Positions 1,788 through 6,732 of a stretch of 6,732 bases of DNA are shown one piece after another. The DNA comes from a virus. Lineage: Duplodnaviria > Heunggongvirae > Uroviricota > Caudoviricetes. The DNA is taken from the IMG/VR virus record IMGVR_UViG_2541047905_000015; one strand, written 5' to 3'. The first letter of the stretch is position 1. Every line of letters begins with the position of its first letter. The notes beneath the pieces were generated by a model. The model was not told the DNA's origin, did no database searches, and was given only the letters and a program-made list of their open reading frames with translations. The position numbers were made by a program, and so were the translations under genes.

Positions 1788-4700
1788 ATGACAGTAAAAA
1801 TTTCTGGCGTGCTTAAAGATGGCACAGGAAAACCAGTACAGAACTGCACCATTGTGCTGAAGGCCAGACGAACCAGCAGCACGGTGGTGGTGAACACGGT
1901 GGCCTCTGAAAATCCGGATGAAGCCGGACGTTACAGCATGGATGTTGAGCATGGCCAGTACAGCGTCACCCTGCTGGTTGAAGGTTTTCCGCCTTCACAT
2001 GCCGGGACCATTACCGTCTATGAAGGTTCCAGACCAGGTACGCTGAATGATTTTCTCGGTGCCATGACGGAGGATGATGTCCGACCGGAGGCACTGCGCC
2101 GCTTTGAGCAGATGGTGGAAGAGGTGTCACGTAACGCCTCCGCGGTTGCACAGAATACGGCAGCCGCGAAAAAATCAGCCAGCGATGCTAGTGCATCAGC
2201 CAGCGAGGCGGCAACTCATGCAACCGATGCTGCAGCCTCAGCACGTGCCGCCAGCACGTCAGCCGGACAGGCCGCGTCGTCGGCTCAGTCAGCGTCTTCC
2301 AGCGCAGGAACGGCATCGACAAAGGCCCGTGAAGCAGCAAAAAGTGCTGCTGCTGCAGAGTCATCAAAAAGCGCGGCAGCTACCAGCGCCAGTGCCGCGA
2401 AAACGTCAGAAACGAATGCCGCAGCATCACAAAAATCGGCAGCCACTTCTGCATCCACAGCGACCACGAAGGCGTCAGAAGCTGCCACCTCGGCACGGGG
2501 TGCGGCGGCCTCAAAAGAGGCAGCGAAATCTTCAGAAACGAATGCATCATCAAGTGCCAGTAGTGCAGCTTCCTCGGCAACGGCGGCAGGAAATTCCGCG
2601 AAGGCGGCAAAAACGTCCGAGACGAACGCTAAGTCTTCTGAAACAGCAGCGGGACAGAGCGCCTCAGCTGCGGCAGGTTCAAAAACAGCGGCTGCATTAT
2701 CTGCCAGTGCCGCGTCAACAAGTGCCGGGCAGGCCTCAGCCAGTGCCACCGCCGCCGGAAAATCGGCAGAAAGCGCCGCATCATCCGCTTCAACAGCCAC
2801 AACGAAGGCTGGCAAAGCCACTGAGCAAGCCACTGCAGCAGCGAGGTCTGCTTCTGCAGCAAAAACCTCTGAAACAAATGCAAAGACTTCAGCAGACAAT
2901 GCTGCTTCCTCTAAGGCGGCAGCCGCATCGTCAGCCAGTTCAGCGGCGTCATCGGCATCATCTGCGTCTGCTTCAAAAGATGAGGCGACCAGACAAGCGT
3001 CAGCAGCGAAAGGTAGTGCCACGACAGCAACAACGAAAGCATCAGAGGCGGCAGGCAGTGCGACGGCTGCATCTCAGAGCAAAGTTGCTGCTGAATCCGC
3101 GGCAACGCGCGCCGAGACAGCAGCAAAACGGGCAGAGGATATTGAATCCGCCGTGGCGCTGGAGGATGCGAGCACGACGAAAAAGGGGATAGTACAGCTC
3201 AGCAGTGCAACAAACAGCACCAGTGAAAAGCTGGCGGCAACGCCAAAGGCAGTTAAAACTGTTAAAGATAGTTCAGTTCAAAAAACTGGCGACACAATGG
3301 GAGGGCAGTTAAAAATCAGCACGATAAATGCTCTTCGAATATTCAACCAAGCCTTTGGCCTTATTTTTAGGCGTTCCGAAGATCATCTTCATCTTATTCC
3401 GACTAATGAAGGGGAGGGGGAAAATGGAGACATCGGTTCATTAAGACCATTCTCTATAAACTTAAGATCAGGGTTGGTGTCCATCGGTAATGGACTAAAA
3501 GTTGGTGGTAGTGTTACTGGTAATTTGACCGGAAACGCAGATACTGCGACCAAGATCAAGACAGCACGTAAGATTGGGGGCGTGGCATTTGATGGATCGG
3601 CAGATATCAACTTGCCTGGAGTCAACGCTACCGGTAATCAAAACACTACAGGTAATGCTGCGACCGCCACGAAACTTCAGGCAGCCAGAACGATTAACGG
3701 TGTGTCATTTGATGGTAGTGCAAATATCACATTGACCCCTTCAAATATTGGGGCATTGGCATTAACTGGAGGGACTCTTTCAGGTGGTTTAACTGCTGCT
3801 GGTGAGGTTATTTCAAGGTCAGCAAATGGTCTGCGTATTGCCTATGGCAACTATGGATTCTTTATCCGAAATGATGGATCAAACACATATTTTATGTTGA
3901 CAGATTCGGGTAACAGTCTTGGTACGCACAATAGCTTAAGGCCGTTTATAATTAGTAACCATACTGGCAATGTTACAATTGCAACTAAATTAAACGCGAG
4001 TGGTGGTATCACTGGATCTTTATCGGGTAATGCAAGCACAGCAACCAAATTGCAAACTGCAAGGACAATTAACGGCGTAAAATTTGACGGCTCGGCAAAT
4101 ATTGAAGCGTTTCCGCCAGGTGTTCCGCTGCCGTGGCCATCAGATACACCACCTGCAGGTTATGCAATCATGCAGGGGCAGACGTTTGATAAGGCAGCAT
4201 ATCCGAAACTGGCTATTGCCTATCCTTCAGGTGTTATTCCAGATATGCGCGGCTGGACAATCAAGGGCAAACCCGCCAGTGGCCGGGCCGTATTGTCTCA
4301 GGAACAGGACGGCATAAAATCGCACACCCACAGCGCCAGCGCATCCAGTACGGATTTGGGGACGAAAACCACATCGTCGTTTGATTACGGCACTAAATCC
4401 ACGAATAACACCGGGGCGCATACGCACAGTCTGAGTGGCTCTACGGGGTCTGCCGGTGTTCATACTCATGGTAATGGTATTCGTTGGCCAGGAGGCGGCG
4501 GTTCTGCGTTAGCATTTTATGATGGCGGTGGGTTCACTTATGTCCAGAATTCACAGTATCAAGTAAGCCCGGAGACTTCTTCCTATAGATCGTATTATCA
4601 ACGTATTCAGACACAGTCAGCAGGTGCTCATACCCACTCGCTGTCTGGTACTGCAGCAAGTTCTGGCGCACATGCACATACTGTAGGTATTGGTGCGCAT

Positions 4701-4814
4701 ACGCACTCCGTTGCGATTGGTTCACATGGACACACCATCACCGTTAACGCTGCGGGTAACGCGGAAAACACCGTCAAAAACATCGCATTTAACTATATTG
4801 TGAGGCTTGCATAA
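1788..4814 (+). CDS. stf: Side tail fibre protein, mosaic: lambda Stf-like N-terminus, Ala/Ser-rich shaft, tail-fibre repeat module, collar plus His-rich tip
   Basis: 1008 aa. The N-terminus ([22 protein letters not shown]...[14 protein letters not shown]) and the C-terminus ([62 protein letters not shown] ... [31 protein letters not shown]) match lambda Stf as I remember it. Its TAA stop overlaps the tfa start as TAATG (4812-4816). Confidence 0.93.
2130..3140 (+). repeat. Low-complexity Ala/Ser/Thr-rich imperfect tandem repeat region encoding the stf shaft
   Basis: About 330 codons dominated by GCN, TCN and ACN. The motif AAK(T/S)SETNA recurs at nt ~2401, ~2527, ~2611 and ~2861. This region also produces long spurious ORFs in other frames and on the opposite strand. 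Confidence 0.7.
3529..4107 (+). repeat. Three copies of a ~28-aa phage tail-fibre repeat inside stf
   Basis: [28 protein letters not shown] (nt ~3529-3614), [28 protein letters not shown] (~3650-3733) and [28 protein letters not shown] (~4027-4107). They resemble the Pfam 'phage tail fibre repeat' family (Phage_fiber_2, from memory). The surrounding stretch 3250-4080 looks more AT-rich than the rest of stf. Confidence 0.6.
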
Positions 4815-5398
4815 TGGCATTCAGAATGAGTGAACAAGCACGGACCATAAAAATTTATAATCTGCTGGCCGGAACTAATGAATTTATTGGTGAAGGTGAC
4901 GCATATATTCCGCCTCATACAGGTCTGCCAGCAAACAGTACCGATATTGCACCACCAGATATTCCTGCTGGCTTTGTGGCTGTTTTCAACAGTGATGAGG
5001 CATCGTGGCATCTCGTTGAAGACCATCGGGGGAAAACGGTTTATGACGTAGCGTCAGGGGACGAGTTATTTATTTCTGAACTCGGTCCGTTACCGGAAAA
5101 TGTTACCTGGTTATCGCCGGAAGGGGAGTTTCAGAAGTGGAACGGCACAGCCTGGGTGAAGGATACGGAAGCAGAAAAACTGTTCCGGATCCGGGAGGCG
5201 GAAGAAACAAAAAACAACCTGATGCAGGTAGCCAGTGAGCATATTGCGCCGCTTCAGGATGCTGCAGATCTGGAAATTGCAACGGAGGAAGAAACCTCAT
5301 TGCTGGAAGCCTGGAAAAAGTATCGGGTGTTGCTGAACCGTGTTGATACATCAACTGCACCTGATATTGAGTGGCCTACGAACCCTGTCAGGGAGTAA
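4814..5398 (+). CDS. tfa: Tail fibre assembly protein (chaperone for Stf), lambda Tfa-like
   Basis: 194 aa, same length as lambda Tfa and closely matching it as I recall it ([82 protein letters not shown]...). Start is translationally coupled to the stf stop. Confidence 0.93.
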
Positions 5399-5447
5399 TC
5401 ATTGGGATTATGCCGCAGCACGTCTTAAGCAAGAACGTGCTGCGGTT
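5233..5447 (+). repeat. Direct repeat copy 1: tfa 3' end plus ~50 bp downstream
   Basis: Aligns by eye with 6282-6497 at an offset of ~1050 bp, roughly 85-90% identical. It covers the last ~54 codons of tfa, the stop, and the downstream TAATCATTGGGATTATGCCGCAG...ACGTGCTGCGGTT. Confidence 0.8.
5413..5445. terminator. Hairpin between the convergent tfa and methyltransferase genes (candidate bidirectional terminator)
   Basis: Perfect 11-bp stem CCGCAGCACGT (5413-5423) / ACGTGCTGCGG (5435-5445) with an 11-nt loop. A T-run (5456-5461) follows on the + strand. No U-tract on the reverse strand, so termination for the methyltransferase would need to be U-tract independent. Confidence 0.4.
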
Positions 5448-5452
5448 GGATG

Positions 5453-6121
5453 CTATTTTTTCCCTGAAGCGGAAAACATTACTACAGTACCTTGAACCTT
5501 GGTTTTAACATTCTCGAAATGCTCTGAGAGTATATGTGTTAAGCCTTCTTCGGAATCTTTTGTGTTTGAAAAGATGCCTTTCTGATTGTAAATGCGCATC
5601 AGTTTTTGACCGAAGCTATTGTGCACAACTCCATCGCCAAGAATTGTGGCTCCGTATAGAGTTCCATCGTCAGTTAAGGCCTGCGCCGCATTGCGTATTA
5701 CACAGCTTTTTGTAGATATATTTCCAGGCAGGCAGTGAAGAAGGTAAAACATGGAAATGGAATCAAATTGACCATGTAACGCCGCGGGATAAGGTTCAAA
5801 AACATCATGGCTAATTTTATGTTTAATTTTTGATTCCCCAGCCCTTGTAGATGCCGCGTTCAGGCTAGCTTCGTTCAAATCCATTAAAGATATCAGACTA
5901 CTCTCAGGTACGTGAGTAAGGTAAAACCCAGTTCCAACACCAATATCCAGATGGTTGTTACCTACATGTTCCAGAAAGTGTGGAAGAAGGTGTTCCTTTG
6001 TAGGACATCCCCATGCAAGCCGATTTGATACTCCCAAAACCCACCAGTCATAAAGCTTTAGGGTAAGTGGTGTGTAAATTTTAGCCCCATCATCTGTGTT
6101 TTTTTTCATTGATTTCACCAT
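5453..6121 (-). CDS. Class I SAM-dependent methyltransferase of unknown substrate (moron), resembling YbcY of the DLP12 prophage
   Basis: 222-aa reverse-strand ORF with a Rossmann-fold SAM-binding motif I (HLDIGVGTGFYL), an acidic motif II (LMDLNE), and FDSISMFYLLHCLP. No DPPY/NPPY or PC-type DNA-methyltransferase motifs. The likely true start is the second Met (nt 6109, giving 218 aa), preceded by GGTGA. Composition looks clearly more AT-rich than the tail genes. Convergent with tfa. Confidence 0.8.
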   Translation of the reverse strand: MVKSMKKNTDDGAKIYTPLTLKLYDWWVLGVSNRLAWGCPTKEHLLPHFLEHVGNNHLDIGVGTGFYLTHVPESSLISLMDLNEASLNAASTRAGESKIKHKISHDVFEPYPAALHGQFDSISMFYLLHCLPGNISTKSCVIRNAAQALTDDGTLYGATILGDGVVHNSFGQKLMRIYNQKGIFSNTKDSEEGLTHILSEHFENVKTKVQGTVVMFSASGKK

Positions 6122-6150
6122 GTTATAGTTTTATTTGTGAATTAAATCAA
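6122..6150 (-). promoter_or_regulatory. Putative sigma70 promoter for the methyltransferase moron
   Basis: On the reverse strand: -35 TTGATT (complement of 6145-6150), 17-bp spacer, -10 TATAAC (complement of 6122-6127), then GGTGA and the ATG at 6109. Near-consensus spacing and hexamers; sequence-only prediction. Confidence 0.4.
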
Positions 6151-6177
6151 TTATGGCGATGAATTACAAGGGGTTAA

Positions 6178-6447
6178 ATGCTGCCGCAGCATAGCGATAT
6201 TGAAATAGCCTGGTATGCTTCGATACAGCAGGAGCCGAATGGCTGGAAGACCGTCACCACACAGTTCTACATCCAGGAATTCAGTGAGTATATTGCGCCA
6301 CTGCAGGATGCTGTAGATCTGGAAATCGCAACGGAGGAAGAAAGATCGTTGCTGGAGGCATGGAATAAATATCGGGTATTGTTGAATCGTGTTGATACAT
6401 CAACTGCACCTGATATTGAGTGGCCTGCAAATCCTGTCAGGGAGTAA
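6178..6447 (+). CDS. Truncated/chimeric tail fibre assembly protein fragment: novel 37-aa N-terminus fused to the Tfa C-terminal ~52 aa (resembles tfaX)
   Basis: 89-aa ORF with AAGGGG 4 nt upstream of the ATG. Residues ~38-89 are near-identical to the Tfa C-terminus; the N-terminus ([37 protein letters not shown]) is unrelated to Tfa. It may be a translated remnant or a pseudogene. Confidence 0.6.
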
Positions 6448-6497
6448 TCATTGGGATTATGCCGCAGATACGTCGTATGCAGGAACGTGCTGCGGTT
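6282..6497 (+). repeat. Direct repeat copy 2: 3' end of the tfa-like fragment plus ~50 bp downstream
   Basis: Same orientation as copy 1. Encodes ...[51 protein letters not shown], against ...[51 protein letters not shown] in tfa. Confidence 0.8.
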
Positions 6498-6561: not shown

Positions 6562-6732
6562 ATGGTCCGTCTGCCCCCTGTGGTGATGTCAGCAAAATCA
6601 GCCACTGCGCGAACCACAATAGCCCGGGAAGATGCTGAAGATCACCAGGTAAAGCTGTCAGCGCAGAAACTGGAAGAACTGCTCGCATCAATGGTTAAGG
6701 ATGAGGTTGATCGCAATGATGGGATTTATTGA
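6562..6732 (+). CDS. Small hypothetical protein (56 aa from ATG 6562; the ORF is open from 6451 if an upstream TTG or GTG is used)
   Basis: ORF ends with TGA exactly at the window edge. GGAGG at 6547-6551 lies 10 nt upstream of ATG 6562. Product MVRLPPVVMSAKSATARTTIAREDAEDHQVKLSAQKLEELLASMVKDEVDRNDGIY is charged and probably helical; I recognise no family. Confidence 0.35.
   Translation: MVRLPPVVMSAKSATARTTIAREDAEDHQVKLSAQKLEELLASMVKDEVDRNDGIY

Follow-up and report, generated by a model that had tools for sequence, protein, structure and literature searches.

An intact ybcY methyltransferase gene on a cassette between tfa repeats of an Escherichia coli lambda-like prophage

The stretch of 6,732 nt analysed here, referred to as the window throughout, is taken from the virus record IMGVR_UViG_2541047905_000015 and represents the tail-fibre end of a lambda-like prophage, as indicated by its open reading frames (ORFs) and Pfam matches. 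Within this region, a gene for a putative S-adenosylmethionine (SAM)-dependent methyltransferase is located antisense to the tail genes, which raises the questions of which gene this is, how it came to lie there, and what its product may do. A first-pass annotation made from the sequence alone had interpreted it as a moron with a promoter and a 3' hairpin of its own. The gene is an intact ortholog of ybcY (b0562), a pseudogene within the prophage DLP12 of Escherichia coli K-12. It is already on record as ybcY, phrog_2132 and WP_000240999.1, with a promoter in print, and is ordinary rather than new.

The identity of the gene is evident from the K-12 locus at about 577.6 kb, where 732 of 740 nucleotides across gene and spacer are the same as in the window (99%) and where a frameshifted 'class I SAM-dependent methyltransferase' is annotated between tail-fibre-assembly fragments. 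The gene order in K-12 is tail-fibre-assembly fragment, methyltransferase, tail-fibre-assembly fragment, appY and ompT, which we take to be the arrangement tfaD-ybcY-tfaX-appY-ompT. The K-12 allele has lost its second ATG by loss of the G and, in addition, one A of a run of eight (A8), and a C is replaced by T two bases upstream (about 6650-6680 of the K-12 locus, L002). The A8 run directly follows the start codon in the window (6097-6109, minus strand) and could be prone to slippage; among 11 loci compared, this region was changed only in K-12-type alleles.

The gene is widespread within the species. When at least 80% of the query had to be covered, 3,798 of the 5,426 complete E. coli genomes (about 70%) contained its DNA, with at least 95% identity at the best place in every matching record. 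A single genome had up to four copies, and the copies in E. coli numbered 4,882 in total. In strain UTI89, the same arrangement is found at a prophage end adjoining a truncated ompW and yciE-trp, and the locus, annotated as WP_000240999.1, is 100% identical over window positions 5300-6300. The protein matches phrog_2132, a family listed with 'unknown function', over 218 of 218 positions (E = 3.9e-157). Fifteen phage records contain the gene at 98.6-100% identity, all of them lambdoid phages of E. coli (ev243, 2G7b, Kati, Turner and the PhiR series). Its neighbour in ev243 and Kati is ompT, both being part of the accessory region that separates the tail fibre genes from int, and in Kati this region also contains a 750-nt gene for a transcriptional regulator, which is the size of appY.

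A minus-strand ORF of 222 codons with a class I motif I had been proposed, and this ORF is present at 5453-6121 and contains HLDIGVGTGFYL. The coding sequence proper, identified by ORF analysis, Pfam and phrog_2132, most likely starts at the second ATG at 6109 and occupies 5453-6109 including the stop codon, which results in a protein of 218 residues; the in-frame ATG at 6121 would add four more. The later start is favoured because the homologs, mostly 217-225 residues in length, align from the second methionine, as does the PHROG profile, because codon 4 of the four-codon extension encodes either Ser or Leu among E. coli alleles while the remaining protein is almost invariant, and because a GGTGA Shine-Dalgarno sequence (6119-6115) is positioned 5 nt 5' of the second ATG. 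The length of 222 residues given before is thus correct for the ORF, but 218 residues is the better-supported length of the protein, with MKKNTDD and not MVKSMKK as the predicted N-terminus. The gene has a GC content of 41.2% (35.6% at third codon positions), as opposed to 48-55% in J, lom, stf and tfa. A windowed GC calculation accordingly placed it at the minimum of the window, within the bottom 2% of sliding windows, a contrast that has to be read with the caveat that the middle part of stf also falls to 41-46%.

Sequence profiles and the predicted structure support the assignment of the protein to the class I SAM-dependent methyltransferases of the small-molecule type and not to the restriction-modification (R-M) enzymes. 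The protein exceeds the Pfam cut-off for Methyltransf_12 (37.5 bits versus 30) and also those for Methyltransf_23, Methyltransf_25 and Methyltransf_11. Motif I reads LDIGVGTG, and D55, G57, G59 and G61 are invariant in 36 homologs. The AlphaFold (AF2) model (predicted local distance difference test, pLDDT, 91; predicted template modelling score, pTM, 0.88) displays the seven-stranded alpha/beta fold of the class I core, preceded by two N-terminal helices. Two types of DNA methyltransferase were considered and rejected: an R-M enzyme acting on N6-adenine or N4-cytosine, as there is no PP dipeptide, no DPPY or NPPY motif and no partner nuclease, and a C5-cytosine methyltransferase, as neither a PC dipeptide nor ENV occurs in the translation. 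The earlier view that an R-M methylase is unlikely is therefore upheld by the missing motifs and by structural matches of the small-molecule type, and of the substrates proposed a small molecule is the most likely.

The structural and profile searches place the protein within this class at some distance from any solved or curated member. The best Foldseek match was a phosphatidylethanolamine N-methyltransferase (8ys9, E = 9e-12), and template modelling scores (TM-scores) reached only about 0.6 at 15-17% identity. Sequence and profile searches against the PDB yielded only remote matches to JHAMT, UbiG and ToxA/XrdM with E-values of 5e-6 or worse, and only generic methyltransferases were retrieved from the viral structures of BFVD. 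Among 36 family members, weak NCBIfam matches were obtained for CpaM (32 of 36), RquA (30 of 36), Legionella-type PmtA (26 of 36), BioC (18) and UbiG (12), with best E-values between 1e-7 and 1e-4. The bit scores stayed far below the equivalog cut-offs, with 18 versus 180 for CpaM, 16.9 versus 175 for RquA and 15.7 versus 390 for PmtA.

These matches could be taken to indicate a lipid- or quinone-directed enzyme similar to PmtA, RquA or UbiG, which would alter the membrane of the lysogen, e.g., by methylation of phosphatidylethanolamine (PE) or of quinones, and would thus mediate lysogenic conversion. A PE methyltransferase is the closest structural match, CpaM, RquA and PmtA recur in most family members, aromatic residues abound in the conserved N-terminal helix (LYDWWVL...AW), and the gene travels with the envelope cargo genes ompT and lom. 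However, the low scores, TM-scores and identities given above all speak against such a close functional relationship, and no membrane segment is evident in the protein. Moreover, we know of no report of methylated PE in E. coli. On balance, a lipid or quinone substrate appears unlikely. A second alternative is an RNA or protein methyltransferase that would tune host translation in the lysogen by modifying tRNA, rRNA or a protein similar to release factors. Enzymes of this kind do occur among the matches, but these are weaker and less consistent than those to small-molecule enzymes, no NCBIfam equivalog threshold is approached, and the model contains only a short helical lid and neither an RNA-binding nor any other extra domain. 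We rate this alternative as improbable.

How the gene is positioned within the prophage became apparent from the sequences flanking it. It is part of a cassette of about 1.05 kb, which consists of a hairpin, the methyltransferase gene on the minus strand, a spacer of 68 bp and a decaying remnant of the tfa 3' end, and which is bracketed by 226-bp direct repeats of the tfa 3' end. Copy 1 (5222-5447), identified by alignment and as repeat families D1 and D4, contains the tfa 3' end with its stop codon and the hairpin. Copy 2 (6271-6497), identified by alignment, carries a degenerate second hairpin at about 6462-6495, which does not fold better than shuffled sequence (z = -0.96). Both copies share 89% identity, so that the duplication of the tfa 3' end, as well as the antisense placement of the gene between tfa and the duplicate, is as originally described.

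The remnant is an ORF of 89 residues on the plus strand (6178-6447; tfa', tfaX-like), in which 31 unique N-terminal residues are joined to the C-terminus of Tfa. It corresponds to positions 75-130 of the 131 positions of Pfam Caudo_TAP and to 88 of 88 positions of phrog_2341, and in Escherichia and Shigella it is the constant companion of the methyltransferase gene on its promoter side. A plausible ribosome-binding site (AAGGGG) is associated with this ORF. As the reading frame is broken by stop codons in alleles of the K-12 type and in the phage Kati copy, the ORF is best explained as a decaying remnant and not as a small functional Tfa.

The locus was also compared across genomes. A query for the empty site was constructed by joining the sequence left of the copy 1 end to the sequence right of the copy 2 end. 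Uninterrupted matches to this query, with identities of up to 99.2%, were obtained in 20 genomes, representing a direct junction of tfa and a DUF4376 remnant. An example is strain EFF60, which likewise carries lom-stf-tfa at the ompW/yciE site and in which tfa runs directly into the DUF4376 remnant. The empty junction is a chimera in which copy 1 extends as far as the hairpin and copy 2 continues from there, so that the 1.05 kb constitute an insertion/deletion polymorphism that recombination inside the duplicated tfa 3' sequence resolves; the empty-site data are compatible with gain and with loss of the cassette and do not decide between them. The edges of the cassette recur in unrelated contexts. 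The E. coli cassette was also found at 99-100% identity on two short contigs of metagenome-assembled genomes (MAGs) labelled Bacillus sp. and Planococcaceae (L013 and L023), most likely due to E. coli contamination of these bins.

The left edge of the cassette is formed by the hairpin, a perfect inverted repeat of 11 bp (5413-5445, arms 5413-5423 and 5435-5445) which begins 8 nt after the methyltransferase stop codon. The arms of 11 nt are 100% complementary, and the predicted folding energy is -23 kcal/mol for the minus-strand RNA (z = -5.5) and -28.5 kcal/mol for the plus strand, in agreement with the structure first noted at the 3' end of the gene. Past the hairpin, the minus strand continues with CAUAAUCCC instead of a U-tract, and the hairpin is therefore not a canonical intrinsic terminator for the methyltransferase gene. 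With respect to the proposed moron layout, the extra antisense gene, its deviant GC content and its absence from the same prophage in EFF60 agree with the proposal, while the hairpin, although strong, would not be a canonical terminator. Similarity to phage Kati and to loci of E. coli and Shigella (L012, L014, L015) starts exactly at position 5413, which identifies the hairpin as the fixed left edge of the cassette in these sequences. For the same reason, an interpretation of the hairpin as part of the tfa 3' flank alone was ruled out.

On the plus strand, 32 of 32 bases of the hairpin (window 5413-5444) are identical to the 3' terminal hairpin of CssrB, a small RNA (sRNA) of Shigella represented in Rfam. 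A full-length CssrB match (230 bits; gathering score 76) is located on the minus strand of the Shigella flexneri locus (L014, 6666-6845), convergent with the methyltransferase gene and ending at the hairpin 9 nt past its stop codon. In the window only the CssrB hairpin is left, and the tfa 3' end replaces the CssrB body. The hairpin may stop or stabilise transcripts arriving from both directions.

To place the gene in a wider context, a profile search of 1.84 billion representative proteins was carried out. The search delineated a compact family of 423 clusters at E-values of 1e-30 or better, mostly of 215-230 residues, and 527 matching stretches were confirmed with one genome per species. The relatives belong mainly to the Gammaproteobacteria, with Oxalobacteraceae and a few MAGs of other labels. 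The best 80 of the 527 loci, at 50% identity or more, are mostly from Enterobacterales, the Pseudomonas syringae group, Xanthomonadales, Pasteurellaceae and Oxalobacteraceae. Clustering of the neighbouring genes over these 80 loci revealed no conserved partner, only generic paralogous families at scattered distances. The copies of Salmonella, Enterobacter and Yersinia lie singly on the chromosome, and no phage genes occur within 8 kb of them. The Salmonella homolog (L003, 8001-8663) lies beside cybB, and as the locus of STM1638 has been described next to the sRNA gene rydC and cybB (PMC11340327), the homolog probably corresponds to STM1638. In the Enterobacter, Klebsiella and Citrobacter loci, the homologs have a GC content of 35-43% (35-42% in Klebsiella and Enterobacter; homolog loci L019-L024), which is below what is typical for these genera and suggests that they were horizontally acquired there as well.

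Across 36 sequences, 57 columns are invariant, including YDWWV, HLDxGxGTGY, YLLHCLPG, GATI and YNxKGIFSN, and the ratio of nonsynonymous to synonymous substitution rates (dN/dS) is about 0.1 relative to the homologs of Citrobacter, Enterobacter and Klebsiella. The gene is thus under purifying selection. This result bears directly on a further alternative, namely that ybcY is a captured bacterial gene without function which merely persists by its linkage to recombining tfa sequences. The inactivated K-12 allele, the decay of the adjoining tfa' ORF and the existence of empty sites would be in line with such a hitch-hiker, as would the finding that a ybcY mutant had no phenotype in one assay (PMC2408971). 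However, the low dN/dS and the residues kept invariant across genera speak against it. In addition, the cluster of the 222-residue protein comprises 6,589 sequences while the truncated clusters are much smaller, and the gene is retained in inducible or plaque-forming phages. There is, in our view, little chance that the gene is without function.

The accessory location might also suggest a role in anti-phage defence or anti-defence, both of which had been listed as candidate roles. The gene is a predicted transcription unit of its own, follows the tail fibre genes in a variable region that is a hotspot for accessory genes, and is carried by functional temperate phages. A search against PADLOC-DB v2, however, yielded no meaningful match, with mad2 as the only entry (E = 0.0096, 12.8 bits), a partner gene is missing from the 80 loci compared, the homologs outside of E. 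coli reside in ordinary chromosomal contexts away from phage genes, and the protein is not a DNA methyltransferase. The proposed defence function thus did not gain support and is very unlikely. That the function of the family is uncharacterised, as had been stated, was borne out by NCBIfam and PHROG, which contain no characterised member, and a literature search identified no functional study for WP_000240999, c0651, STM1638, CssrB or moron methyltransferases.

Transcription of the gene would most likely originate from the AT-rich divergent spacer (6110-6177, 68 bp, 27.9% GC) between the methyltransferase start and the start of the tfa' ORF. Two promoter candidates are present on the minus strand. 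The first, P1 (6122-6150), is the one predicted before and consists of TTGATT (6150-6145) and TATAAC (6127-6122), separated by 17 nt. The second, P2 (6150-6177), was obtained by a consensus scan with 9 of 12 matches and consists of TTAACC (6177-6172) and CATAAT (6155-6150) at a distance of 16 nt. Based on the usual spacing of 7 nt, the transcription start site (TSS) of P1 is predicted near 6115. That of P2 would be located near 6143, and the corresponding mRNA would retain the GGTGA Shine-Dalgarno sequence.

P1 is supported by earlier work on K-12. Genomic SELEX (systematic evolution of ligands by exponential enrichment) identified a binding site for the RpoD holoenzyme within the divergent ybcY-tfaX spacer, and the corresponding table lists exactly TTGATT-17-TATAAC for ybcY (Shimada et al. 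2014, PMC3946193); these hexamers were picked in silico within the bound spacer and do not represent a mapped TSS. The same study marks an H-NS binding site in this spacer. A 2.7-fold change of the ybcY probe in a K-12 microarray (PMC4778652) may be regarded as a faint sign of transcription. Among the plus-strand entries of K-12 Cappable-seq data, the nearest TSS, at position 582,147 of U00096.2, would fall inside tfaX. The P1 hexamers are conserved, with the consensus TATAAT in some alleles, and K-12 differs from the window by only one substitution upstream of the -10 hexamer. As the -10 hexamer ends at 6122, one base ahead of the first ATG, P1 would be unable to serve the 222-residue ORF. 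The promoter as proposed is therefore present and in print, but not usable for the protein length it had been paired with. It has only 9 of 12 consensus matches, and such sites are no commoner in this region than in shuffled sequence (two found versus 2.9 expected), so that P1 is not significant by sequence alone.

Taken together, we consider it moderately probable that the window contains an intact ybcY cargo cassette whose product is a small-molecule methyltransferase that is transcribed on its own and benefits the lysogen. This reading builds on the identity of the gene, the anatomy of the cassette, the fold, purifying selection and the lack of conserved partner genes, each of which has been established above. 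ybcY would accordingly be a cargo gene of lambda-like E. coli prophages that encodes a cytoplasmic class I enzyme of 218 residues and of the small-molecule (non-DNA) type, and homologous recombination between the 226-bp tfa repeats could add the cassette to a prophage or remove it. The gene is most likely transcribed from the AT-rich spacer against the direction of the late operon. Expression is probably low or conditional, as the K-12 spacer is bound by sigma-70 RNA polymerase in vitro and is a target of H-NS. The enzyme would most likely transfer the methyl group of SAM to a small, probably hydrophobic, metabolite or xenobiotic, which may come from general metabolism or from the surroundings rather than from the products of linked or neighbouring genes, and the benefit would fall to the lysogen rather than to phage replication. 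The mobile, stand-alone and partner-less pattern resembles that of detoxifying methyltransferases more than that of biosynthetic ones.

Several observations weigh against this reading. None of the structural or profile matches is close enough to assign a substrate, and methyltransferases of tRNA, rRNA and proteins are found among the weaker ones. The loss of the start codon in K-12 has no known consequence, which adds to the lack of a mutant phenotype mentioned above. Both promoter candidates are matches of only 9 of 12 positions in AT-rich DNA, and a transcript from P1 would have a leader of only about 6 nt in front of the 218-residue start and would lack the GGTGA sequence. The H-NS site points toward silencing, and the gene may be silent in the lysogen, where expression had been considered probable before. 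A more far-reaching and quite improbable extension is that ybcY is a conditionally de-silenced enzyme of lysogenic conversion whose substrate is a membrane lipid, a quinone or an incoming small molecule with antibacterial action. If this were the case, about 70% of the complete E. coli genomes would gain a so far unnoticed trait of chemical modification or resistance, which K-12 would lack due to its broken allele.

The remainder of the window is occupied by tail genes on the plus strand. ORF analysis and Pfam identified the C-terminus of J (112-969), lom (1037-1636) and stf (1788-4814), followed by a full-length tfa of 194 residues (4814-5398; Caudo_TAP, E = 1.9e-44; phrog_105, E = 8.8e-101), which is the final gene of the late operon ahead of the cassette. 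The start of a DUF4376-type remnant follows the 89-residue ORF. The chromosomes of several human E. coli isolates, e.g., VR50, match the window from position 205 to its end at 99.9% identity. Positions 1-204, which belong to the C-terminal region of J, are not covered by these best matches, suggesting that a mosaic junction lies in J. The Ala/Ser-rich repetitive part of stf (2100-3200) has a high GC content and a strong AT skew and gives rise to spurious long ORFs of 372 residues in another plus-strand frame and of 245 residues in antisense direction; on its minus strand (2368-3129), weak sub-threshold matches to the Rfam sRNA isrG were observed.

Two annotations in the vicinity of tfa require caution. 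A RefSeq 'hypothetical protein' of 45 residues, transferred from the annotation of UTI89 and K-12 and named 'nucleocapsid protein' in K-12 records, corresponds to window positions 5371-5508 on the plus strand, where it covers the tfa stop codon, the hairpin and the 3' end of the methyltransferase gene, and is probably spurious. The Rfam model IS009 (RF02111) matches the 3' coding part of tfa (5157-5355, plus strand) with 225 bits and the tfa duplicate (6201-6404, plus strand) with 112.5 bits, slightly below the gathering score of 117. Since it matches both, this 'sRNA' model coincides with tail-fibre-assembly coding sequence and perhaps arose from tfa pseudogene fragments of K-12 that were once treated as intergenic.

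With regard to discovery the stakes are small, as the gene, its layout and its proposed promoter are already contained in public annotation and in a published table, and nothing suggests an unusual mechanism for ybcY. What emerges is that prophages have distributed a conserved methyltransferase, kept under purifying selection, to about 70% of the complete genomes of E. coli. The dead copy in K-12 may be one reason why ybcY has never been studied, and the intact allele, the corrected start codon and two candidate TSS positions provide a clean starting point.

Comparison with known systems places the cassette among familiar ones. K-12 ybcY shares with it the flanking tfa fragments, the promoter hexamers, the hairpin and 99% nucleotide identity. 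It differs in being annotated as frameshifted, with the ATG and one A missing, whereas the window copy is intact and lies in another lambdoid prophage, of the ompW/yciE type in the closest genomes, without the appY-ompT block. STM1638 of Salmonella, a putative SAM-dependent methyltransferase that is likewise uncharacterised, agrees in length and motifs at 56% identity, but is chromosomal and has other neighbours, none of them phage genes within 8 kb.

Among solved small-molecule and lipid methyltransferases, PmtA (8ys9), juvenile hormone acid methyltransferase (JHAMT, 7ec0), DhpI (3ou2) and MM_2633 (3dtn), as well as CysG/BelI, SgvM and phosphoethanolamine methyltransferase, served as comparators. 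They have in common with the ybcY product the Rossmann-like seven-stranded fold, the short N-terminal helical lid, motif I of the form DxGxGxG, the acidic residue after strand 2 and a similar size. Identities, however, reach only 12-21%, no single enzyme stands out, and the family motifs YDWWV, YLLHCLPG, GATILG and YNxKGIFSN could not be tied to any of them.

Finally, the cassette resembles the morons of lambdoid phages, such as lom and bor of lambda and those of the HK97 type, reportedly defined by Hendrix and colleagues. As in these, an extra gene of deviant composition, which an otherwise identical prophage lacks, separates the conserved late genes from the prophage end and is equipped with its own promoter-like region and a 3' hairpin. 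In contrast to them, the ybcY cassette is bracketed by direct tfa repeats of 226 bp, which is an unusual layout, its hairpin has no U-tract and is at the same time the 3' terminus of a convergent sRNA model, and H-NS binds the corresponding spacer in K-12.

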